64,000 bases of DNA from a virus. How positions within the stretch are numbered: position 1 is the stretch's first letter; every line of letters starts with the position of its first letter. The position numbers were made by a program, and so were the translations under genes. A model generated the notes under the pieces. That model ran no database searches. It was not told where the DNA came from and was given only the letters and a program-made list of their open reading frames with translations. Where the stretch lies: IMG/VR virus record IMGVR_UViG_3300036832_001166, positions 61,433-125,432 of that record; one strand, written 5' to 3'. This document shows positions 16,753 through 51,586 of this stretch, one piece after another.

Positions 16753-18564
16753 ATGCCGTCTGAGGCTGTCACCAAGGTGCTGTCCCGTCTGTGGGCGTTG
16801 GACTGTGACGCGAAGGGCTCAGAGCAGCACGGCTGGAACGCCAAGTGCCCGGCGCACGAGGACCGCAGCCCGAGCCTGAAGCTCGACCAGGGCGACGACG
16901 GCCGCGCGCTGATCTACTGCCACGCCGGATGCACCCTGGAGGCGCTGACGGCCGCGATGGCGCTGGACCCCTCAGACCTGTTTGAGGCCGAGCCCGCGCC
17001 GATCCCCGAGCGGGTCGTGATCGAACGCTACGACTACGTCGACGAGGACGGTACGTTGCTGTTCCAGGTCGAGCGGATGCGCCCCAAGGCGTTCCGCCAG
17101 CGCCGCCCCAACGGCCACGGCGGCTGGGAGTACTCCCTCGGCGATGTGCGCCGCGTCCTGTACCGGCTGCCGAAGGTGATCGAGGCGGTCAAGGCCGGGG
17201 AGATCATCTGTGTCGTCGAGGGCGAACGCGACGTCCACACCCTGGAGGGCAAGGGCAAGGTCGCGACGACGTGCCCCGGCGGCGCCGGGAAGTGGCGCGA
17301 CCAGTACTCAGAGACGCTCCGCGGCGCGAAGGTCGCGATCATCCAGGACGCCGACCCGCTCGATCCGAAGACCGGCAAGCGCCCCGGCCAGGATCACGCC
17401 CTGCAGGTCCGCGCGGCGTTGGACGGCGTCGCTGCTGCTGTCAAGGTGTTCCAGCCCGCCGTCGGCAAGGACGTCACCGACCACGTGAAGGGTGGCCTGC
17501 CGCTGTCTGAGCTGGTCGACGTCACCGACGGGGAGCCTGCTAGACCGAAGATGGAGGTGCTGTCCGCGCGCGCCATGATGGAGCTGCCGGACCCTGACCA
17601 GGAGGGGTACCTGCTCGGCCCGCTGATCTACCGCGGGCACCGCATCGTGATCGGCGGCTGGACCGGCCACGGAAAGACCACCTTCTGCATGCACATGGTC
17701 GCCTCCGCCGTCGAGGGCCGCGAGTTCCTGCGGCCCGGCTGGACCGGCAAGGGCAAGCTCAAGGCGCTGGTCGTCGACGTCGAGCAGGGCACCAAGACCG
17801 TCAAACGCGTGCTCCGCGAGGTTGGCCTGGACCGCTCCGAGCAGGTGCAGTACCTACGCGTCGCTGACGGGCTCGCGCTCGACAACGACCCGGACGCGAT
17901 CGCGTTCATGGAGAAGACGCTGCACGAGGGCCACTTCGACATCGTCCTTGCCGACCCGCTGTACAAGCTCGGCCGCGGCGATCTCAACGACGCGCGCGCC
18001 GCCACCGACCTGATGCGCCGGTTCGATGACTGGCGTGAGCGCTACGAGTTCGCGCTGCTGCTGCCTATGCACTGCCGCAAGCCGAAGGAGACCGCCAAGC
18101 TGTCCGCGCATGACTTGTTTGGAAGCAGTGCCTATCAATGGGGTGCCGAGGCCCTGCTCGGGATCGAGCGCAAGAGCCGGTCGCTCACCTGGCTGCACTG
18201 GTGGAAAGACCGCGAGGGCGAGCTGGTCGAGGACGGCGCGCAGCTCGGCGGCCACTGGAACCTGCACTTCGACCGGCGCCGCGGGTTTGAGAAGTACCCC
18301 GAGCATGAGCAGGACAAGCTCGTCGAGGTGTCCGCCACCCCCCGCTTCGATCTCGACGAGTTCTGCCTCGACGCGATCAAGCAGCTCGGCACCGCCACCC
18401 GCGAGGACATCCACCGCCGCCTGCGCCACCAGGGCCGACTCGATGTCAGCGTCGCGAAGATCACCCGCGCCTGCGAGCGACTCGGCGGCCGCGGCGTCAT
18501 GAGCAACGGCGAACACTTCCTCAAGGACCGCGCCTACTACCTCCAGGACGAGCTGACGGTGTAG
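16753..18564 (+). CDS. DNA primase-helicase (Zn finger + TOPRIM + AAA_25/RepA-type helicase)
   Basis: CPAHEDRSPSL...YCHAGC Zn finger; VVEGERD and QDAD TOPRIM motifs; Walker A GWTGHGKTT; Walker B IVLADP; GGAGG RBS. Confidence 0.9.
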   Translation: MPSEAVTKVLSRLWALDCDAKGSEQHGWNAKCPAHEDRSPSLKLDQGDDGRALIYCHAGCTLEALTAAMALDPSDLFEAEPAPIPERVVIERYDYVDEDGTLLFQVERMRPKAFRQRRPNGHGGWEYSLGDVRRVLYRLPKVIEAVKAGEIICVVEGERDVHTLEGKGKVATTCPGGAGKWRDQYSETLRGAKVAIIQDADPLDPKTGKRPGQDHALQVRAALDGVAAAVKVFQPAVGKDVTDHVKGGLPLSELVDVTDGEPARPKMEVLSARAMMELPDPDQEGYLLGPLIYRGHRIVIGGWTGHGKTTFCMHMVASAVEGREFLRPGWTGKGKLKALVVDVEQGTKTVKRVLREVGLDRSEQVQYLRVADGLALDNDPDAIAFMEKTLHEGHFDIVLADPLYKLGRGDLNDARAATDLMRRFDDWRERYEFALLLPMHCRKPKETAKLSAHDLFGSSAYQWGAEALLGIERKSRSLTWLHWWKDREGELVEDGAQLGGHWNLHFDRRRGFEKYPEHEQDKLVEVSATPRFDLDEFCLDAIKQLGTATREDIHRRLRHQGRLDVSVAKITRACERLGGRGVMSNGEHFLKDRAYYLQDELTV

Positions 18565-18841: not shown

Positions 18842-18850
18842 TGCTAACAT
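18842..18850 (+). promoter_or_regulatory. Extended -10 promoter for the stand-alone GGY-NN array
   Basis: TGC-TAACAT (TGnTAnnnT) 12 nt upstream of the first GGCCC unit, overlapped by a partial operator. Confidence 0.5.
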
Positions 18851-18862
18851 CGTGTGCGATGC

Positions 18863-18967
18863 GGCCCGGCCAGGCTGGGCTAGGCGCGGCGAGGGAGGCC
18901 CGGCAAGGCAGGGCTCGGATGGGCTTGGCGCGGGAGGAGGGATCGGCCCGATGGTCGCTCCCTCCTC
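18863..18967 (+). ncRNA. Putative guide-like ncRNA: 14 GGY-NN units plus 3' hairpin
   Basis: GGCCC GGCCA GGCTG GGCTA GGCGC GGCGA GGGA GGCCC GGCAA GGCAG GGCTC GGATG GGCTT GGCGC, then stem GAGGAGGGATCGGCC-cgat-GGTCGCTCCCTCCTC. Intergenic. Confidence 0.7.
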
Positions 18968-20195: not shown

Positions 20196-20915
20196 TTACT
20201 CGTCCTCTTCGCCGTTCGCTTCGGCGCGGAGGGTGTAGGCGGCCAGGGCCTTGTCACCGGCCTGCTTGGCTGCCTTCTTCAGAGCCGAGCGGGCCCGGCC
20301 CTTGAGCGTCGGAAGCTGCCGGGTGAACAGGCCCACCTGCTCAGCGGCACCGACCAGCGCGATCTCGGCCTTGTCGGTCATCGGTCGGATGATCTCGGCC
20401 TCGACGTACTTCGCCTCGTTGGTCAGGAACAGGTAGTCGCCTGCCTTGACCAGCACGAGGTCGTCCAGCTCGTCGCGGACCCAGCGCTGCAGGGTGCCGC
20501 CGTACTTGTGGTCGACCAGCTTCCAGATGTGCTGCTCGGCCTTGTGCCACGCGGTGCGGGCAAGCGCGTCCTGCGCGTCCCACGCGTCGGCGTCGCCGTG
20601 GGGCGGCGGCACCGGCTCGTTGGTTAGCAGCGCTCCCGCGACCAGGTAGCGGTGGATCGGCACGTCGAGCCGCTCCTCCTTGGCCGCCCCGACAACATGG
20701 TCCTGAGCGATCGCGAAGATGGCCTTCTTGATCGCTTCGTTGTCGACCTTCTCCACGGGCGTGATCTTGCTGTCGTCGACGTACGTGAACTCGTACTCGC
20801 GCAGCAGCGCCCGCATCGCCAATGCCTCGGTGACCGAGACGCTGGCGCTTGACCTGACCGCCTCCTCGTAGGCCTGGACGGCCTCCGCGAGGTGGTCCTG
20901 GGATTGTGTAGCCAT
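20196..20915 (-). CDS. Hypothetical helical protein, first gene of the leftward operon divergent from the RAMP-like gene
   Basis: GGAAGGAAGG RBS before ATG 20915; coding-like composition. Confidence 0.75.
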   Translation of the reverse strand: MATQSQDHLAEAVQAYEEAVRSSASVSVTEALAMRALLREYEFTYVDDSKITPVEKVDNEAIKKAIFAIAQDHVVGAAKEERLDVPIHRYLVAGALLTNEPVPPPHGDADAWDAQDALARTAWHKAEQHIWKLVDHKYGGTLQRWVRDELDDLVLVKAGDYLFLTNEAKYVEAEIIRPMTDKAEIALVGAAEQVGLFTRQLPTLKGRARSALKKAAKQAGDKALAAYTLRAEANGEEDE

Positions 20916-21008
20916 GCCCTTCCTTCCTGCCGGTGCGAGGTTGCCCGTCGCTCGGCGGTTGACTCCGGTGCGAGGGCCTGGCTCGGCCCGTCGCTCGGCA
21001 TGGCCGGG

Positions 21009-21058
21009 ACTGTAGCACACGACTTGTTTGACGGGTCGCACGAATCGTGTGCTACAGT
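21009..21058. promoter_or_regulatory. Divergent promoter pair formed by a perfect 14-bp inverted repeat
   Basis: ACTGTAGCACACGA (21009-21022) and TCGTGTGCTACAGT (21045-21058); each arm carries TGC-TACAGT pointing outward. Confidence 0.8.
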
Positions 21059-21152
21059 TCGCCCCCTCGGCCATGCATGGCACGGTAAGGCTGGTACGGC
21101 CGGGGCACATAATGCGAACTGCCTCAATGACGAGGCAAGGGGGCAAACCCAC

Positions 21153-21869
21153 ATGATGAATGGGCCTGTCCGACGGGTGATCCCCGTCGGATACCAGGTG
21201 TACAGGCTGCGGTTGGATGGACAGTCGCCGCTTCTGATGAACTCGTCCGAGTACGACCGGGCGAGCGACACATACCGAGCGTTCAAGGCGCTCGGCAGCA
21301 AGCGCGGCAAGACGATCGAGGACGAGCTACGTCTCGGCGAGCTGGAGTTCCACCTCGGGCTGCACTACGACGAGAAGGTCGGAGTGTTCATCCCCGGGAT
21401 CAACCTCAAGGAGCTGATCCGCTCCGCCGCCACGAAGTACCGCAAGGGCGAGGAGATCCGGCGCAGCCTGATCGTGCCGGACTACCGGATCCCGCTGATC
21501 TACGACGGCCCGCGCACGCCCGCGGAGCTGTACGCGCAGGGCTATTACGACACGCGCATGGTCGCGAACGCTGGCGCCGGTTCCGGCCGCGTGCCGAGGA
21601 CACGACCCGCGTTTGAGGAGTGGGCGATCGAGACCGACATCGCGTTCGATCCGGAGGATCTCGACGACGACCTCGTCCAGAACGCCATCGACCGCAGCAC
21701 GAAGTACGGCTTCGGGGATGGGCGCTCGATCGGCTTCGGCGCGTTTGAGCCGACGTTGACATTTCTCAGGCGTCAGTCGAAGGTCAGCAAGGCGGATGCG
21801 GTCAAGGCTCCGAACGGCCGCGCGAAGACCAACCTGGCGGCGGCGACGTCGCGGATCCTGAGTTCGTAG
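21153..21869 (+). CDS. Solitary RAMP/Cas7-like RNA-binding protein (Vipr-like candidate)
   Basis: N-terminal strand YRLRLDGQSPLLMN and C-terminal glycine-rich loop YGFGDGRSIGFGAF (GxGxxRSxGxG), hallmarks of the RAMP fold. No other cas gene or CRISPR array in the window. GGY-NN arrays begin at its stop codon. Confidence 0.7.
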   Translation: MMNGPVRRVIPVGYQVYRLRLDGQSPLLMNSSEYDRASDTYRAFKALGSKRGKTIEDELRLGELEFHLGLHYDEKVGVFIPGINLKELIRSAATKYRKGEEIRRSLIVPDYRIPLIYDGPRTPAELYAQGYYDTRMVANAGAGSGRVPRTRPAFEEWAIETDIAFDPEDLDDDLVQNAIDRSTKYGFGDGRSIGFGAFEPTLTFLRRQSKVSKADAVKAPNGRAKTNLAAATSRILSS

Positions 21870-22046: not shown

Positions 22047-22278
22047 GGCTGGGCGCGGTTGGCAAGGCTCGGATGGCGTGGACTGGCTAGGCTCGGAACG
22101 GTTGGGCGTGGTAGGCGAGGCGGGCGAGGCGAGGCGGGCAAGGCCCGGCTTGGCGAGGTTGGTAAGGCGGGGTACGGCATGGCAGGCTTGGCACGGCGTG
22201 ACATGGCGGGGCAATGCCCGGCGTGGCACGGCAAGGCACGGCACGGGATCACCGGCAGCCTTCGGGCTGCCGGTGATC
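22047..22278 (+). ncRNA. GGY-NN array 2 (about 41 units) with perfect 3' hairpin
   Basis: GGCTG GGCGC GGTT GGCAA ... GGCAA GGCAC GGCAC GG, then GATCACCGGCAGCC-ttcg-GGCTGCCGGTGATC (22247-22278) followed by ACTTT. Confidence 0.75.
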
Positions 22279-22311
22279 ACTTTCGTCTGCGGCCGGTCGT
22301 AGACTCACGCT

Positions 22312-22836
22312 GTGATCGAGTTCGTGGTTCTCGGCAGGCCAGTCACGAAGGGTTCGACGACGTCGTTCGCTGCCAAGCGGAAGGACGGCACGCTCGTCAC
22401 GCGCGAGAACGGCAACCCGGTGGTCGTGACCCGCAACGCGTCCGGCGCCCGCGGCCGCACCTGGGAGAACGCCGTTGCGAGCTGCGCCCTGGAGGCGCGC
22501 GAGCTGGCCGGGGGCCGCATCGCCCGCGGCGAGCCGGTCGGCATCGAGGTGGTCTTCTTCCAGCCGCGGCTCGCCTCCCACTTCGGCACCGGCCGCAATG
22601 CGTGCAAGCTAAAGGACTCCGCGCCGCCGTTCCCGGCCACCCGGCCGGACGTCGATAAGTACCTGCGCGCGGTGCTCGATGCGCTCACTTCGGTGCTCTA
22701 CGCCGACGATGGACAGGTCGTGACCGTCCGCGCGGAGAAGCGGTTCGGCGATCCGGCGCGCGCGGAGATCCGCTGCTGGGTAGTGTCTGCGCTACCGGTC
22801 GACGGTCAGCTTGGCTTGGAGCTGGCGGTCGCCTAA
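22312..22836 (+). CDS. rusA: RusA-family Holliday junction resolvase
   Basis: FVVLGRPVTKGS; RPDVDKYLRAVLDALTSVLYADDGQVV. Confidence 0.85.
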   Translation: MIEFVVLGRPVTKGSTTSFAAKRKDGTLVTRENGNPVVVTRNASGARGRTWENAVASCALEARELAGGRIARGEPVGIEVVFFQPRLASHFGTGRNACKLKDSAPPFPATRPDVDKYLRAVLDALTSVLYADDGQVVTVRAEKRFGDPARAEIRCWVVSALPVDGQLGLELAVA

Positions 22837-45349: not shown

Positions 45350-48300
45350 ATGGCCGTCGCAGACCCGCAGCCGCCGGAACAGCAGCTTCATCCGGACGCG
45401 CAGCGGATCATCACCGCGGCGCAGACCGGCGCGGCGATCAGCACTGGCGGACAGGTTGCGAAGGCGGCGACCGTAGGTCCGGCGATCGCGGCGTCAGCAC
45501 CCGCGGTCGCCGCGGGCAAGATCGTATCGGCGGGCGTCGAGACCGCGGAGTTCGGCATCAAGGTCGCGCTCGCGCTCCGGATCCTGCGCAAGCTGTTCAA
45601 AGGCCACAAGATGGAGTCGGCGACGTGGCTGGAGAACGAGCTGCGCCGACGCTTCCCGAACGCTGACCCGGCCGTGATCCGCGCGGCGGTGCAGCGCGAG
45701 ATGCAGTTTGAGCAGGCGTTCCAGCGCAAGGCGCTGGCGCGGACCGAGCGTGACATGCACGCCGCCGGGCAGCTCCCGACGCCGCAGGCGCGCGCCAAGC
45801 GTGCCGGGGAGATCATCGCCCGCGAGAAGCACTACAACGCGCTGCGCGAGCAGGCGCTGCTGAACCGGGCGATCGCGCACGTGGAGAACGCCGGGGTCAA
45901 GGCCGTCTCGCCGGACGGCGCGAGGTGGGTGCTGGGCCAGCGCAAGAATCACACGCTCGGCTGCCTGGCGCTGGCCGGGAAGAACTGGCCGTGGGAGGTG
46001 CTCGACACGATCCCGCCGCCGCTGCACACCGGCTGCGGCTGCAGCCTTCAGCCACTGAAGCCCGGCGACACGGTGCCGCCGGTGGCGGACGCGATACGCG
46101 CCGCACGCGCGGCGATGGCGCTGGAGGAGGCCGTCCGCAGCGTCGCTGACGCCGGGGAGATCGACGCCTACCTAGCGGGCCAACCCGCCCGGCCGAGCGT
46201 CTCCAGGGCCCTGGAAATGCTCCAGGAGGCCCGCTACGACGAGGTACTCCACCCACGCGGCCGCGGCGGCCGATGGATCGAGAAGCTCGGCAAGGCGAAG
46301 CTGAAGGTCAAGCCGACCTACGAGGAGCAGGGCGGGTTCACCGGCAAGCGGCTGACCAAGCCTCAGGTGCAGTCGGTCGTGCGCCGCGTGGCGGAGGGAG
46401 TGGTCGACTTCTACGGCGGCGACAAGAAGGCGGTCAACGCCAACTACGACCAGGAGTACACGGCGACCAAGGGCGTCGACGCGCAGTTCCGCCACCCAGA
46501 GGAGGTCTTCCCCGGGATCGCCTACGGCCAGAACGTGGCCGACAAGATCCGCGAGCCCGACATGGGGCTGATCGGCCTGCGGCAGATCGCGCATGAGGCG
46601 GCGCACTCGCTGTCGGGCAACCGGCCTGGACCGCTGCCCGGATTCGCGCAGCATTTTGAGGAGGGCGGCGCGGAGATCCTGTCGATCTGGTTCTGGCATC
46701 ACCGGATGCAGGAGCTTGACCATCGCGACGCGGTCCGCGCGGGCAGCAAGTGGACGGCGCCGGGCGCCGAGACGCTGGCGCACAGCGTGGTCTACCGCAA
46801 CTGGACCGAGGAGTTGATGCGCCGGGCGGCGAGCAAGGTCGGCTGGGACCGCATCGCGATCGTGGATGAGGTGGAGCGCGTGATGCGCGGCGACCACACC
46901 GTCCGGCTGCACTTCCGTGACGAGACCGACCCGAGCTTCGACCTGCCGAAGGATCTGCCCGACGTCGCGAAGGGTGATCACCGCGGCGATGAGGAGGGCG
47001 ACAACGCCGTCGCGCTGATGAAGTGGCTGGTCGACGATGCGGGCGAGCTGCGGGAAGCGGAGTTCACCGAGCGGCTGCATCCGCGCGACCGGCTCGGCAA
47101 GTTCAGCGAGACGCTGCACCGGCTGCACACGATCACGCGCCAGGACGTCGAGGCGGGCCGCGCTCCCGGTCTGAGCGTGTCCGGTGATCTCAGCCCCGGC
47201 GTCGCCGGTCACGCTGGGATTGGCGGGAAGGGGATCCGGCTCAGCCCAAGCTCGTTCGACAAGGAGGGCCGCGTCAGCTCGGCGCTCGTCGCTCACGAGG
47301 CGGGGCACTATCTCGTCAACGACATCATCAAGGACGGCAAGGTCCCCGACGCGCTGGAGCATTACCGCGCCGGATACGGTTACGCCGGTGGCCGCTACCG
47401 GGGCGCTGGGCAGACGATCCTGTTCCGCAACCCGTGGAAGGCGGACGAGGGCGACCGGCCCGAGGAGATGCTCGCGGACGCCTACAGCGCGCTGTTGCAC
47501 GGCGAGAACGAGTTCAGTTACACGCCTGGGCTCGACGGGCCCGACGACCCCGAGTCGCGCGAGCAGGCACGCCAGGAGTTCGAGGCCAGTCCGAAGCACA
47601 AGCTGCTGGACGTCGTAGCGAAGGCGGCGCGCGACGCGGGCTGGCCGGACAAGGCCTTGTACCGGTGGGAGGCCAGCGGCCCGATGTCCAACCGCCAGTA
47701 CCAGCTCAAACTCCGCGAGGCGCACTGGACCGAGTGGCTGCATCCACGCGGCCGCGGCGGAGCGTGGGTCGACGCGATCCACCACGAGATCAAGGAGCCC
47801 AAGGCCGAGGAGCCGCACGAGGGCTTCACCGGCGAGGACTTCGCCCGGGCGATGGACGGCTTTGAGCACGGCGGGATCGTGGCGGTCCGCGCCAACCGCA
47901 CGCAGGTTCAAAACCTGTACGGCGAGGTGTGGCTGAACCTGCAGCGGCCGAGCGAGCCGCGGCCGGTCGGGCTGGCGCGCGTGATCGTCAAGCCGCCGAA
48001 CCACCGTGGCGAGCGCGTCGCGGAGCTGGCGAACATCTACCTGCACGAGGATCAGCAGAGCCAGGGGTTTGGCCGGGCGTTCACCGACCATCTGCTCAGC
48101 ACGCTGCGCGACGGCGGCGTGGACCGCATCAACGTCGAGGCGGTGTCCGTCGGCGGCTACGCGTGGGCGCGCCGCGGGTTCGTGTGGACGGCCGACAAGA
48201 AGGCCGAGCAGCAGCGGATCGTTGCCGACGCGAAGACCGACGGCCGCTGGTCAGAGATCGCCCGGCACACGCTACCGGCGGCGCTGGCCGAGTTTGAGCG

Positions 48301-48490
48301 CAAGATCGACGCCGGGGAGTTCTCGTCGGAGGCGGAGCTGGCCGCCTACGGCATCGACCGGCCGTGGCGCGAGCACGACCTGGAGACCGGCGCGCAGATC
48401 GGCCCGCTGACGTGGCTCGGCAAGCAGCTCATGCTCGGCTCGCGCTGGAAGGGATCACGCCCCGTTGTCGTAGCTCAAGACGTGCGCTAG
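45350..48490 (+). CDS. MuF-like head morphogenesis protein fused to two zincin peptidase modules and a GNAT acetyltransferase
   Basis: CLAL...PPPLHTGCGC (MuF PPxHxxCxC); IAHEAAH...FEEG; VAHEAGH...EEMLADAY; LHEDQQSQGFG...GGYAWARRGF; three LHPR linkers. Confidence 0.8.
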   Translation: MAVADPQPPEQQLHPDAQRIITAAQTGAAISTGGQVAKAATVGPAIAASAPAVAAGKIVSAGVETAEFGIKVALALRILRKLFKGHKMESATWLENELRRRFPNADPAVIRAAVQREMQFEQAFQRKALARTERDMHAAGQLPTPQARAKRAGEIIAREKHYNALREQALLNRAIAHVENAGVKAVSPDGARWVLGQRKNHTLGCLALAGKNWPWEVLDTIPPPLHTGCGCSLQPLKPGDTVPPVADAIRAARAAMALEEAVRSVADAGEIDAYLAGQPARPSVSRALEMLQEARYDEVLHPRGRGGRWIEKLGKAKLKVKPTYEEQGGFTGKRLTKPQVQSVVRRVAEGVVDFYGGDKKAVNANYDQEYTATKGVDAQFRHPEEVFPGIAYGQNVADKIREPDMGLIGLRQIAHEAAHSLSGNRPGPLPGFAQHFEEGGAEILSIWFWHHRMQELDHRDAVRAGSKWTAPGAETLAHSVVYRNWTEELMRRAASKVGWDRIAIVDEVERVMRGDHTVRLHFRDETDPSFDLPKDLPDVAKGDHRGDEEGDNAVALMKWLVDDAGELREAEFTERLHPRDRLGKFSETLHRLHTITRQDVEAGRAPGLSVSGDLSPGVAGHAGIGGKGIRLSPSSFDKEGRVSSALVAHEAGHYLVNDIIKDGKVPDALEHYRAGYGYAGGRYRGAGQTILFRNPWKADEGDRPEEMLADAYSALLHGENEFSYTPGLDGPDDPESREQARQEFEASPKHKLLDVVAKAARDAGWPDKALYRWEASGPMSNRQYQLKLREAHWTEWLHPRGRGGAWVDAIHHEIKEPKAEEPHEGFTGEDFARAMDGFEHGGIVAVRANRTQVQNLYGEVWLNLQRPSEPRPVGLARVIVKPPNHRGERVAELANIYLHEDQQSQGFGRAFTDHLLSTLRDGGVDRINVEAVSVGGYAWARRGFVWTADKKAEQQRIVADAKTDGRWSEIARHTLPAALAEFERKIDAGEFSSEAELAAYGIDRPWREHDLETGAQIGPLTWLGKQLMLGSRWKGSRPVVVAQDVR
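48471..48489 (+). promoter_or_regulatory. Operator/extended -10 promoter for the CCA polyprotein gene
   Basis: TAGCTCAA-GAC-GTGCGCTA + GAAT, overlapping the upstream stop codon. Confidence 0.65.
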
Positions 48491-48502
48491 AATAGGGGGC
48501 AT

Positions 48503-51500
48503 ATGGATTGGGCGACAGCAGCGGCGATCGTGGCGGACAGGACACCGAGCCTGTCCGATCCACCCGACGCGCCAGGGGATGACCATGAGTTCTGGCAGCG
48601 GGTCAAGACGCTCGTCGACGGCGACGGCGACAGCATCGCGCTGAGCGAAGCCGAGCGCTACGACGAGATCCTGCACCCGCGCGACCGCAGCGGCAAGTGG
48701 ATGGCGAAGCTGGGGCTCTCGCATCTCCGCGAGGTCGGCGGAGCGCCGCGCGACGAGCTGCTCGGCAAGATCCCCAAGGACATCGACTACGTCGCCGCCG
48801 AGACCCCGGAGCGGATCAAGCAGGCGGTCGAGCAGGCAGGCGGGAAGACCGAGGAGCTGATGGTCCGCGACCGGCTGGTCGGCGTCCGCGCTACGCACCC
48901 GGCGTTGCCCGTCGGTGGCGTCGAGATCGTTCCCCCACGCGTGGAGGCGAGCACCGGGCCGGGGCGACACGACTTCGAGATCGTGCCGCACCCGGACCTG
49001 TATAGCCACGCCGAGCCGGGCCACGCTATGCCTCGCCACGCCCCACCCCGCCGAGCCGGGCCAGACCTCGCCGGGCCAAGCCCAGAGCAGGTTAGCCGGA
49101 TGCTGGCCGACGACGCGCAGCGTCGCGACTTCACGATCAACACTCTGCTGAGAGATCCCGCGACCGGCCAGCTCACCGACCCGACCGGCCACGGCGAGCA
49201 GGATGCGCGCAACCGGGTGTTGCGCATGGTTCACGACACGAGCTTCCAGGAGGACCCGCTGCGCATGCTGCGCGGTGCGCGCTTCGTCGCCCAGCACGGG
49301 CTGGAGCCCGACGCCGGGACGCTGGCAGCGATGCGCCGCGACTCCGGCGGGATGACCGCGCTGACCAAGAAGGGCGTCTCCGGGACCGTCCAGGACGAGC
49401 TGCGCAAGCTGCTGATGGGCGAGCACCCGGGCAAGGGTCTGCGGCTGATGCGCGACACCGGCATGTTCCAGACGCTGCTGCCCGAGCTGGCGCCGATGGT
49501 CGGATTTGATCAACGTTCGATCTACCACGAGCACGTGCTGGACGAGCACACGTTCAACGTGATCGACGAGCTGGCGCGGATGGGCGCGAGCCACGACGCG
49601 CGGCTGGCGGCCCTGTTTCACGACAGCGGCAAGCCGCTGACCGCCAACCTCAAGCCTGACGGCACGTACCGCTTCCACTCTCACCCCGAGCACGGCGACC
49701 ACGCCGACGTCGGCGCTGACATCGCGCGCCGCACGCTGAACCGCCTGAACTACCCGGCGGACACGATCAGCCACGTCACCGGGCTCGTCCGCGAGCACAT
49801 GCTCACCGCCGTCGAGAAGCCGACGCCGGTCAAGGCCCGCCGTCTGCGCGCCGCTCACTCCGACCGGTTCCTGACCGACCTGCTGGACCACAAGCAGGCC
49901 GACATGGAGGGCCACGGCGAAACGATCGCCAAGAGCCTGGAGGGCGTCCACAAGCTGCGCGACCTGCTGGCTGAGAACGCGCAGGCGCCGCGGTCGCTGA
50001 AGGATCTGAAGATCGACGGCCGCGACCTGATCGCGCAGGGCGTCGAGCCCGGGCCGCGGCTGGGCGCCATCCTGCGCCAGCTCCTGACCGAGGTGGTGCT
50101 CAACCCGGACCTGAACCGCCGCGAATGGCTGCTGCAGCGCGCCGAGCGCCTGGCCGTCACGCCGATGCAGGAGAGCGTCTACTCCGAGCTGCTGCATCCG
50201 CGTGACCGCGCGGGGAAGTGGATCGCGGGACGCCGGAAGCTTGTCGACCTGGACGCTATCGCCAGCCGCGCGCACGCCGGGCAGGTCGACAAGTCGGGGC
50301 GCCCGTACATGGAGCATGTGCGCGCCGTCGCCGACTCGGTCAAGCCCGAGGCGCGGCCGGTCGCGTTCATGCACGACGCGCTGGAGGACACGCAGATGGC
50401 CCCGCAGGATCTGGAGGGGGTCCTGGAGCCGCACGAGATCGAGGCGGTCAAGCTGCTGACCCGGCCGAAGGGCGACGGGATGAGCTACGACGCCTACATC
50501 GAGAAGATCGCGACGGCGCCCGGCCCGGCTGGGGAGCTGGCGCGCGAGGTCAAGGCCGCTGACCTGAACCACAACCTCGGCCGGATGAGCAACCTCGACG
50601 CGAAGACGCAGGCGCGGCTGCGTCCGCGCTACGAGGCGGCTATCGCGCGGCTGTCACCGGCGCCGCACCCGTTTCAGCAGGCGGGCGACCCGGAGAACTT
50701 CGCGGGCGTCACCCGCGAGCAGGCCGAGGCGCACCTCCGGCGGCTGTATGAGATCAGCCTGCGCTCACCCGAGCATGCCGCCAATCTTGCGTGGTACGAC
50801 ACGCAGCATGCGCTGATCCAGGATGTGGCCGCAGAGCACGGCGTCGACCCGGTCACGATGGCAGCAGCGATCTCGGCGACGTCGCCCCAACTCGCGTGGG
50901 ATCACACGTCGAAGGCTGGTGTGTTCACCCGCCCGAACCTGAGCCTGGCGCTCAACGCCCTGCGGCTCGCGCGCGCCTTCCCGGACGAGCCCGCGCCGCT
51001 GCTGGTCGAGCGGCTGCTGGCGGCGGCGGAGGGCCAGAAGGGCCCGAGCGAGGTTCAAGGTCTCGGCAGCTCGGTGGAGAAGGCGATCAGGATCTTTCGC
51101 GGCGAGGATCCCGACAAGGTGCTGACCGCACCGAAGACCCGGTCGTTCTACAACAACCTCGTCTGGCCCGAGCTGAGCACAACGGTCACCGTCGACGCGC
51201 ACATGGCGCGCGCCGGGCTGGGGATCCTGGAGAAGAAGGGCTACGCGCAAGCGGACAAGGCCATCGAGGAGAAGGCCAAGGGATCCGGCTACACGTGGAT
51301 GGCGAACCGCATCGAGGCGATCGCGCGCGAGTTCGGCGTGCTCCCCCACCAGGCCCAGGCCGCGATCTGGGTCGAACGCAAGCGCGAGTCAGACGAGGTC
51401 GAGCGGCTGGCCAAGGAGGCCGAGAAGAAGCGGTGGGCGAGCCTGACGAAGGAGGAGCAGGCGGCGGAGCGCGCGGCGAAGAAGGCCGAGCGCGAGCGCA

Positions 51501-51586
51501 AGAACGCCGAGAAGGCAGCCAAGAAGGAGGCGCGCCAGGCCGCCGGTCTCAAGGTCGCCAAGCGCGAGCACTACAAAGGCTCATGA
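48503..51586 (+). CDS. Polyprotein: CCA tRNA nucleotidyltransferase with HD domain + (p)ppGpp-hydrolase-like HD domain + HhH-GPD glycosylase-like domain
   Basis: VGGAPRDELLG..PKDIDY, DDAQRRDFTIN, FQEDPLRMLRGARF, ALFHDSGK, LKIDGRDL..G..PGP; AHAGQVDKSGRPYMEH...MHDALEDT...VKAADLNHN; AWYD...SATSPQ..W...KTRSFY.N...VTVDAHM...QAAIW. Confidence 0.85.
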   Translation: MDWATAAAIVADRTPSLSDPPDAPGDDHEFWQRVKTLVDGDGDSIALSEAERYDEILHPRDRSGKWMAKLGLSHLREVGGAPRDELLGKIPKDIDYVAAETPERIKQAVEQAGGKTEELMVRDRLVGVRATHPALPVGGVEIVPPRVEASTGPGRHDFEIVPHPDLYSHAEPGHAMPRHAPPRRAGPDLAGPSPEQVSRMLADDAQRRDFTINTLLRDPATGQLTDPTGHGEQDARNRVLRMVHDTSFQEDPLRMLRGARFVAQHGLEPDAGTLAAMRRDSGGMTALTKKGVSGTVQDELRKLLMGEHPGKGLRLMRDTGMFQTLLPELAPMVGFDQRSIYHEHVLDEHTFNVIDELARMGASHDARLAALFHDSGKPLTANLKPDGTYRFHSHPEHGDHADVGADIARRTLNRLNYPADTISHVTGLVREHMLTAVEKPTPVKARRLRAAHSDRFLTDLLDHKQADMEGHGETIAKSLEGVHKLRDLLAENAQAPRSLKDLKIDGRDLIAQGVEPGPRLGAILRQLLTEVVLNPDLNRREWLLQRAERLAVTPMQESVYSELLHPRDRAGKWIAGRRKLVDLDAIASRAHAGQVDKSGRPYMEHVRAVADSVKPEARPVAFMHDALEDTQMAPQDLEGVLEPHEIEAVKLLTRPKGDGMSYDAYIEKIATAPGPAGELAREVKAADLNHNLGRMSNLDAKTQARLRPRYEAAIARLSPAPHPFQQAGDPENFAGVTREQAEAHLRRLYEISLRSPEHAANLAWYDTQHALIQDVAAEHGVDPVTMAAAISATSPQLAWDHTSKAGVFTRPNLSLALNALRLARAFPDEPAPLLVERLLAAAEGQKGPSEVQGLGSSVEKAIRIFRGEDPDKVLTAPKTRSFYNNLVWPELSTTVTVDAHMARAGLGILEKKGYAQADKAIEEKAKGSGYTWMANRIEAIAREFGVLPHQAQAAIWVERKRESDEVERLAKEAEKKRWASLTKEEQAAERAAKKAERERKNAEKAAKKEARQAAGLKVAKREHYKGS
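48959..49082 (-). ncRNA. Antisense GGY-NN array (16 perfectly phased pentamers) plus 3' hairpin, inside the CCA-enzyme coding sequence
   Basis: Minus strand GGCTT GGCCC GGCGA GGTCT GGCCC GGCTC GGCGG GGTGG GGCGT GGCGA GGCAT AGCGT GGCCC GGCTC GGCGT GGCTA (49082-49003); 14-bp stem with one bulge at 48995-48959. Confidence 0.65.

Follow-up and report, generated by a model that had tools for sequence, protein, structure and literature searches.

A gene for a CCA-adding enzyme in the virus record IMGVR_UViG_3300036832_001166 carries, on its antisense strand, a run of 16 GGY-NN pentamers (Y, pyrimidine; N, any base). These pentamers probably form a functional solo vrRNA gene of the VIPR system, which is dual-coded with a loop of the enzyme, aimed at the alleles of the same gene in sister phages, and linked to the phage's own, resistant allele. 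The 64,000-nucleotide (nt) stretch analyzed here, referred to as the window, comes from a complete phage genome of 125,432 bp that has terminal repeats and a G+C content of 69%, and it makes up the right half of that genome.

VIPR was described in 2026. Its effector, Vipr, is a Cas7-like protein that coats vrRNAs made of GGY-NN units; the NN of each unit pairs with two target bases, one base is skipped, usually a codon wobble position, and binding silences transcription of the target (bioRxiv 10.64898/2026.04.26.720920,.720927). According to the 2026 VIPR preprints, vrRNAs consist of 9-16 units and a structured 3' tail, they are encoded in non-coding DNA, either flanking vipr or, for solo vrRNAs, elsewhere, the self-match of published guides is below their non-self match, and targets are called at a cut-off of 80%.

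The antisense array and its predicted target in sister phages

On the minus strand, the array reads GGCTT GGCCC GGCGA GGTCT GGCCC GGCTC GGCGG GGTGG GGCGT GGCGA GGCAT AGCGT GGCCC GGCTC GGCGT GGCTA, so that the NN order of the guide is TT CC GA CT CC TC GG GG GT GA AT GT CC TC GT TA. The initial annotation had described 16 perfectly phased pentamers; all 16 are in phase and the NN list is identical, but only 15 are GGY units, as unit 12 is AGC-GT. When the window was scanned for six-unit GGY-NN patterns with at most one mismatch, 32 overlapping matches were found (0.02 expected from shuffles), and these were confined to 18.86-18.93 kb, 21.87-22.25 kb, and the CCA-gene array. No further place with such a run was found in the whole genome, and a control with the reversed pattern gave 0 matches. 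The CCA-gene array is the longest in-phase run of the genome and is more regular than the guides that adjoin vipr in the same phage, the other arrays being interrupted by 4-nt and off-consensus units. It is not a copy of the phage's own arrays or of those in a related VIPR locus (L057, described below), since the best ungapped matches fall within the shuffled-NN null, and a search of IMG/VR found the same guide nowhere else.

When the array is decoded, the best site in all four genomes compared (the window and the sister phages G001, G002, and G003) is the same homologous site in the CCA gene; in the window it is found at 48896-48942, 61 nt from the array. For units 2-13 scored without wobble, 23/24, 22/24, and 23/24 bases pair in G001, G002, and G003, respectively. 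The next-best site in each genome reaches 16-17, and the maximum among 800 shuffled guides is 20-21. With wobble (rU-dG, rG-dT) allowed, units 2-14 pair at 26/26 positions with all three sisters (null maximum, 23-24), through 24 Watson-Crick pairs and 2 rU-dG pairs in which a guide U stands opposite a target-strand G; the match of these units to the three sister phages is 92-100%. From unit 1 to unit 16, the number of bases paired with the sisters is 0 2222 1 2222222 1 00. Only a skip of 1 base works, and skips of 0, 2, or 3 yield just the trivial match of the array to itself. The paired motif in the sister CCA gene is PDLPPGGVEIVPP, and the skipped bases are codon wobble positions. When 2.9 million IMG/VR contigs were scanned for exact occurrences of the 13-unit pattern, only two stretches were returned, in the CCA genes of G003 and G001.

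At units 6 and 14 (49052-49056 and 49012-49016), Pro-Pro dipeptides of the target are written CC-TC, with the guide U opposite a target-strand G. Such a U would accept Pro codons (CCN) as well as Ser codons (TCN), and one relative (L005) has Ser at the first such position. Wobble may be used in this way to widen the range of the guide.

Comparison with the orphan vrRNA at 18843, the phage's other putative solo vrRNA, shows that the segment has the same three-part anatomy. In both, a GCTAAC-T box precedes the GGY-NN units and a strong hairpin follows on the 3' side. The octamer GCTAACNT occurs twice in the 125-kb genome when both strands are counted, 6 nt before the array and 12 nt before the orphan vrRNA, and is not present in the alignment of the relatives. 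The -10-like box upstream of the array belongs to a 9-nt piece that is missing from the relatives (plus strand, CAGGTTAGC), and its hexamer TAACCT is where the initial annotation had placed it.

The bulged hairpin that had been noted downstream was also recovered, although we count 15 bp with one bulged U rather than 14 bp. It is made from the conserved coding sequence G-R-H-D-F-E-I-V-P-H-P, and the codons GGG and CGA in its arm are uncommon, as had been remarked (0.20 and 0.02 of their codon families). Its folding energy is -31.1 kcal/mol in 45 nt; among 3000 random 45-nt windows of the genome (mean -14.1, standard deviation 4.3), 0.03% are as good. The tails of the phage's three other vrRNAs have energies of -26.4, -35.1, and -31.5 kcal/mol, whereas the homologous coding segment of five relatives is weaker (-17.3 to -25.8 kcal/mol). 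The hairpin starts 7 nt past the last unit, after GGTCC-GGG, and the other tails start after GGCAC-GGG or GGCGC-GGG. All four vrRNA tails thus follow a GGYNC-GGG ending and otherwise have no common sequence, three reference tails included. Apart from the terminal hairpin, the fold is unremarkable, as the 161-nt unit taken as a whole does not exceed shuffled sequences (z = -0.83). A scan of the entire window against Rfam at gathering thresholds gave no match, and no tRNA genes were found in the window.

A vipr gene is present in the same genome, 27 kb from the CCA-gene array (Table 1). We had also considered that the pentamers are binding sites for a ring protein like TRAP or CsrA, an idea that was dropped after the Vipr match. 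In the sister genomes G001-G004, which were reached via the IMG/VR loci L001, L002, L004, and L005, we found no GGY-NN arrays, no Vipr homologue, and no insert in the CCA gene. Relatives without Vipr and without arrays are therefore also without the insert, and the comparison with homologues that lack a RAMP-like gene, proposed in the initial annotation, does not refute a guide.

Two further guides of the phage can be decoded. The first 12 units of the orphan guide pair perfectly with the AAA_25 helicase gene of G001; its scores against this gene are 25/28 in G001, 24/28 in G003, and 20/28 in the phage's own copy, which lies ~720 nt upstream (18103-18143). In G002 and G003, one gene pairs perfectly with the first 10 units of A2b (22185-22244), the last guide of array 2. 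The phage has a homologue of this gene, the RusA-like gene at 22312-22836, ~80 nt away and directly downstream of array 2, with the region of interest at 22300-22755, and the best own score of A2b is 17/24. In all three decodable cases, the phage's own copy of the target is thus 61-720 nt from the guide.

Table 1. Positions (numbered in the window) of the CCA-gene array, its surroundings, and the related VIPR features
Feature	Position	Strand	Remarks
Class II CCA-adding enzyme module with HD domain	48710..50167	+	inside a 1027-residue polyprotein open reading frame, 48503-51586
Patch of lineage-specific divergence	48881..49190	.	around target, hairpin, and array; ~300 nt
Own copy of the guide target, PALPVGGVEIVPP	48899..48936	+	four true mismatches to the guide
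3' hairpin, 5+10 bp, one bulged U, 6-nt loop	48959..48995	-	extendable to 48998-48956
Replaced/inserted loop YSHAEPGH...PEQVS	49001..49096	+	net +75 nt vs the relatives' 21-nt loop; (A-x-P-x-x)n coil
GGY-NN array, 16 units	49003..49082	-	pattern scan and per-unit pairing
Array unit 1	49082-49078	-	unpaired with sister-phage target
Array units 2-14, putative guide	49077-49013	-	26/26 pairing including wobble
Array units 15-16, "handle" units	49012-49003	-	unpaired with sister-phage target
-10-like box GCTAACCT, with TAACCT at 49094-49089	49089..49096	-	6 nt upstream of unit 1
Orphan vrRNA with GCTAAC-T box	18843..18967	+	reference and positive control; guide units 18863-18931
vipr gene	20892..21869	+	phmmer match to PDB 36pp_D "SUSP1 Vipr protein", E 2e-15, residues 105-286

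The enzyme loop and the divergent patch

By its motifs, the module that hosts the array is a class II CCA-adding enzyme, with motifs A-E of the polymerase-beta head and neck and an RNA-binding body present. Its Pfam domains are a PolyA_pol head (2.6e-16), PolyA_pol_RNAbd, HD, and tRNA_NucTran2_2, followed by DUF7178 in the same open reading frame. CCA- and A-adding enzymes in the PDB match the module with E values of 1e-16 to 1e-10, and the catalytic residues GG..RD, D.D, RRD, and ED..R are invariant in an alignment of 47 sequences. The closest cellular CCA homologues are from metagenome-assembled genomes of Gaiellaceae. The region 45350-51586 holds two large open reading frames that are chains of enzyme modules with an L-H-P-R-x-R-x-G-K/R-W linker before each module, and the same linker precedes the CCA modules of the relatives.

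The insertion site is between the R-H-D (B-x-A) element and motif B (DDxxRRDF). Here, the closest proteins (P0001 and P0002, 75-76% identity) and the IMG/VR loci L001-L005 (49-83%) read ...VPHPGLDGSATPEQMTADDAQRRDF, the window protein reads ...VPHPDL-YSHAEPGHAMPRHAPPRRAGPDLAGPSPEQVS-RMLADDAQRRDF, and the insertion is absent from all seven. Both the DNA and the protein alignment give a net gain of 75 nt, equivalent to 25 codons or 15 pentamers; the remainder of the array segment replaces a short ancestral loop, and the 9-nt piece that gives the GCTAAC of the upstream box is counted within the gain. The initial annotation had proposed an in-frame insertion of ~33 residues between PHPDL and RMLADDAQRRDF. 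Its place and frame were confirmed, whereas the net gain over six relatives is 25 residues.

The flexible loop at this site varies among class II enzymes and controls their switch to ATP (PMC2910056). In an AlphaFold2 model made from the 47-sequence alignment, the mean predicted local distance difference test score of the module is 91.6 (predicted template modeling score, 0.88), and the sole weak block is the insert, a coil with scores of 52-54. The model agrees with the earlier proposal that the array is an antisense, in-frame insert in a tolerant loop and that its DNA would therefore be dual-coding. Closer relatives with the insert did not turn up: a metagenome scan returned only G001 again and distant cellular genes, all of them array-less, no fragment with the insert was recovered when the N-terminal 266 residues were searched, and the phage GenBank collection held no close relative. 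Three other homologues are of note at this loop: P0003, on a 125,034-bp contig, begins ~70 residues past it, as if the gene were split there; the loop of P0004 is ~15 residues longer than that of the relatives; and P0009 has a D-V-Y-S start, as in the loop of the window.

The four mismatches between the guide and the phage's own copy of the target are 48903 A>C, 48905 C>T (Leu CTG>TTG), 48911 C>G, and 48912 C>T, which in the protein amount to D>A, a synonymous Leu change, and a P>V change through two bases. All four are lineage-specific and derived, and TTG makes up 9 of the 247 Leu codons. The own site pairs at 22/26 positions (21 Watson-Crick pairs and 1 wobble pair) compared with 26/26 in the sisters, so that the self-match is below the non-self match and amounts to what the best chance site would give (null mean 21.5).

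These differences lie in a patch of lineage-specific divergence. Compared with G002, identity falls from 92% in both flanks to 73% at 48881-49000 and 83% at 49097-49190; among the relatives themselves, the corresponding values are 75-88%, 86-91%, and 83-90%. Lineage-specific changes number 16/120 nt in the patch compared with 3/171 and 18/800 in the flanks, and about half of them are at wobble positions. The patch suggests that the guide and the resistant allele move or evolve as one cassette, and import from an unsampled lineage would explain it no less well than local selection. The initial annotation had pictured mobile guide units landing in tolerant loops. The mosaic patch is indirect support for mobility, but because the array lies 61 nt from its decoded site and inside the divergent patch, its placement is tied to the target and not to any tolerant loop.

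Proposed function and competing explanations

In the reading we favor, a short minus-strand RNA would start just past TAACCT, be capped by the hairpin, and be coated by Vipr. During co-infection, this guide would bind the rival's CCA gene in the head/cargo operon and block its transcription, as in other VIPR systems, and translation of the plus strand of the same DNA would give a disordered Ala/Pro/Gly/Arg loop tolerated by the enzyme. Because the guide is inside the resistant allele, recombination between related phages could not part the weapon from the immunity.

A number of observations weigh against this reading. The match over all 16 units is only 72-75%, under the 80% cut-off of the preprint, although the phage's other guides (orphan and A2b) likewise leave their last two units unpaired. 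Unit 12 is AGC. The hairpin is unrelated in sequence to the other tails, and in SUSP1-type systems a conserved tail is important for the loading of Vipr (bioRxiv 10.64898/2026.10.15.759431). Around the array, the -10-like hexamer is the only promoter element found, with no -35 box, TG extension, or consensus promoter, and a sigma-70 scan gave no hit; no U-tract was found after the hairpin, and a scan for the intrinsic-terminator consensus was empty. These consensus scans miss the orphan vrRNA too and are therefore uninformative for this host. The phage's own site still has an 81-85% match over the 13-unit core, so self-repression is possible. In addition, the insert is known from one genome only.

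The array could in principle be the product of chance, or of a low-complexity Pro/Ala/Gly linker with accidental 5-nt phasing in a genome of this composition, as the peptide shows a loose five-residue period (A-x-P-x-x) and GCC and GGC are favored by the high G+C content. When the amino-acid sequence was held fixed and codons were drawn from the phage's own usage in 30,000 trials, however, the mean was ~8.5 GGY units and 15 units were reached in 3/30,000; when the order of the residues was shuffled as well, the count was never above 8 in 30,000 trials. The insert is also rich in rare codons, with CCA used four times (0.06), CGA (0.02), CCT, GCT, and TAT. Because of the resampling and the rare codons, we conclude that the pentamer scaffold was imposed at the level of the nucleic acid and that the A-x-P-x-x peptide is a by-product; the phasing is not explained by protein repeats, a possibility the initial annotation had raised. 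Such a run is in no other coding region of the genome (with the reversed-pattern control at 0), and the decoded match is unique in IMG/VR. Based on the resampling, the genome scan, and the unique match, this explanation was rejected, and we give it virtually no weight. Random 15-unit arrays are stop-free in 75% of antisense insertions and in 65-68% of sense insertions, a difference so small that no argument is made from orientation.

It is unlikely that the array is a silent relic, a vrRNA unit or a guide-plus-allele patch that was recombined in and kept as harmless, neither transcribed nor loaded. A relic would account for the failure to find a full promoter and terminator, for the decay of unit 12 to AGC (a change that is synonymous for the protein), and for a 3' structure that is ordinary coding sequence. 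Survival in frame would be easy for it, given the 65-75% of random arrays that are stop-free in a given frame, and a very recent insertion would look alike. Yet 15 of the 16 GGY units are retained against codon bias, all 13 units still pair completely with the sister genes, the GCTAAC-T box is common only to the orphan vrRNA, and the hairpin is 5-14 kcal/mol stronger than that of the relatives. The phage's other guides are more irregular (10/12 units of A2b are GGY) and nevertheless match their targets. The complete sister match, the common box, and the strengthened hairpin led us to disfavor the relic or decoy that the initial annotation had offered as an alternative. A guide that acts mainly on the phage's own CCA polyprotein gene, timing or dampening the late operon, seems very improbable. 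The distance between guide and site is 61 nt, and the own site has 21/26 Watson-Crick pairs (81%), at the 80% threshold of the preprint, with seven consecutive perfect units. Its score is nonetheless that expected of the best site in the genome by chance, the four derived mismatches, one of them a rare Leu codon, look like escape rather than tuning, and published systems have a self-match below the non-self match. We also regard as improbable that the linkage is a footprint of how guides arise, with guides made or captured in cis beside the sequence that is copied and the linkage a by-product of that mechanism and not of selection. In its favor, all three decodable guides are close to the phage's own copy of their target (61-720 nt), the CCA-gene guide matches the ancestral state of all relatives and not the present own allele, and the origin of vrRNAs is not addressed in the 2026 VIPR preprints. 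On the other side, no enzyme or mechanism is known that would rewrite N-N-x triplets as GGY-NN pentamers, the patch with its elevated synonymous divergence is consistent with recombinational import, and selection for linkage explains the same pattern without new biochemistry.

Relation to known systems

The solo vrRNAs of F5 satellites and SUSP1-family phages (bioRxiv 10.64898/2026.10.15.759431) are likewise stand-alone GGY-NN guides distant from vipr. As with the CCA-gene guide, their self-match is below the match to a competitor, and they are used in the conflict of related mobile elements. They lie in non-coding DNA of elements without vipr and have a conserved ~40-nt tail, whereas the CCA-gene guide is in a phage that has vipr, sits inside an open reading frame on its opposite strand, is translated in frame, ends in a hairpin of coding sequence, and would be aimed at a rival allele of its own host gene. 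VIPR and solo vrRNAs are known, but a vrRNA of the kind proposed here, intragenic, antisense, in frame, and directed against the rival allele of its host gene, is not described in the VIPR preprints, and neither "intragenic" nor "within the coding" was found as wording in those of 2026.

The arrangement resembles that of the free-standing homing endonuclease genes of T-even phages (intronless homing, marker exclusion), in which the weapon lies beside or inside the gene whose rival allele it attacks, the allele of the carrier is protected by a few nearby substitutions, and a short divergent flanking patch travels along. Unlike in T-even homing, no nuclease is implicated here, as Type II VIPR silences transcription and does not cut DNA; from the divergent patch, we infer that the guide and the allele may spread by gene conversion. 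A wider proposal, which we put forward tentatively, is that guides and resistant alleles are selfish weapon-plus-immunity cassettes that spread by homologous recombination, a nuclease-free counterpart of intronless homing, and that the guides hide inside coding genes and make new protein loops as they do so. Guides would be able to hide in this way because GGY-NN arrays are nearly free of stop codons and every three units keep the frame.

If a guide gene does overlap a coding gene on the opposite strand, surveys of vrRNAs that are restricted to intergenic DNA undercount guides, and one stretch of DNA can be at once guide scaffold and enzyme loop. The spacing of 61-720 nt between a guide and the phage's own copy of its target gives a testable rule for the safety of the carrier and for spread among recombining phages, and the linkage pattern bears on how new vrRNAs arise. 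On the side of the enzyme, the phage offers a natural experiment, a 25-residue insertion in the loop that controls the switch from C to A specificity. Natural class II loops are short and differ by family, and A-addition is often lost when a foreign loop is put in (PMC2910056); unlike these, the coil of 25 residues added here would be of non-protein origin.

The Type II VIPR of the Escherichia phage SUSP1 has the same GGY-NN units, a length of 9-16 units, and the same 1-nt skip on wobble positions. Its tail is a conserved pseudoknot, whereas the tails in the present phage are plain hairpins after GGYNC-GGG, and unlike SUSP1, this is an uncultured, high-G+C soil phage with 4-nt and off-consensus units in its arrays. 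On a 14.5-kb IMG/VR contig (L057:2900-4545), a related Vipr (61% identity) is followed by ~650 nt of near-unbroken GGY-NN. This array has up to 38 units in phase and one closing hairpin and is far longer than the 9-16 units of SUSP1.

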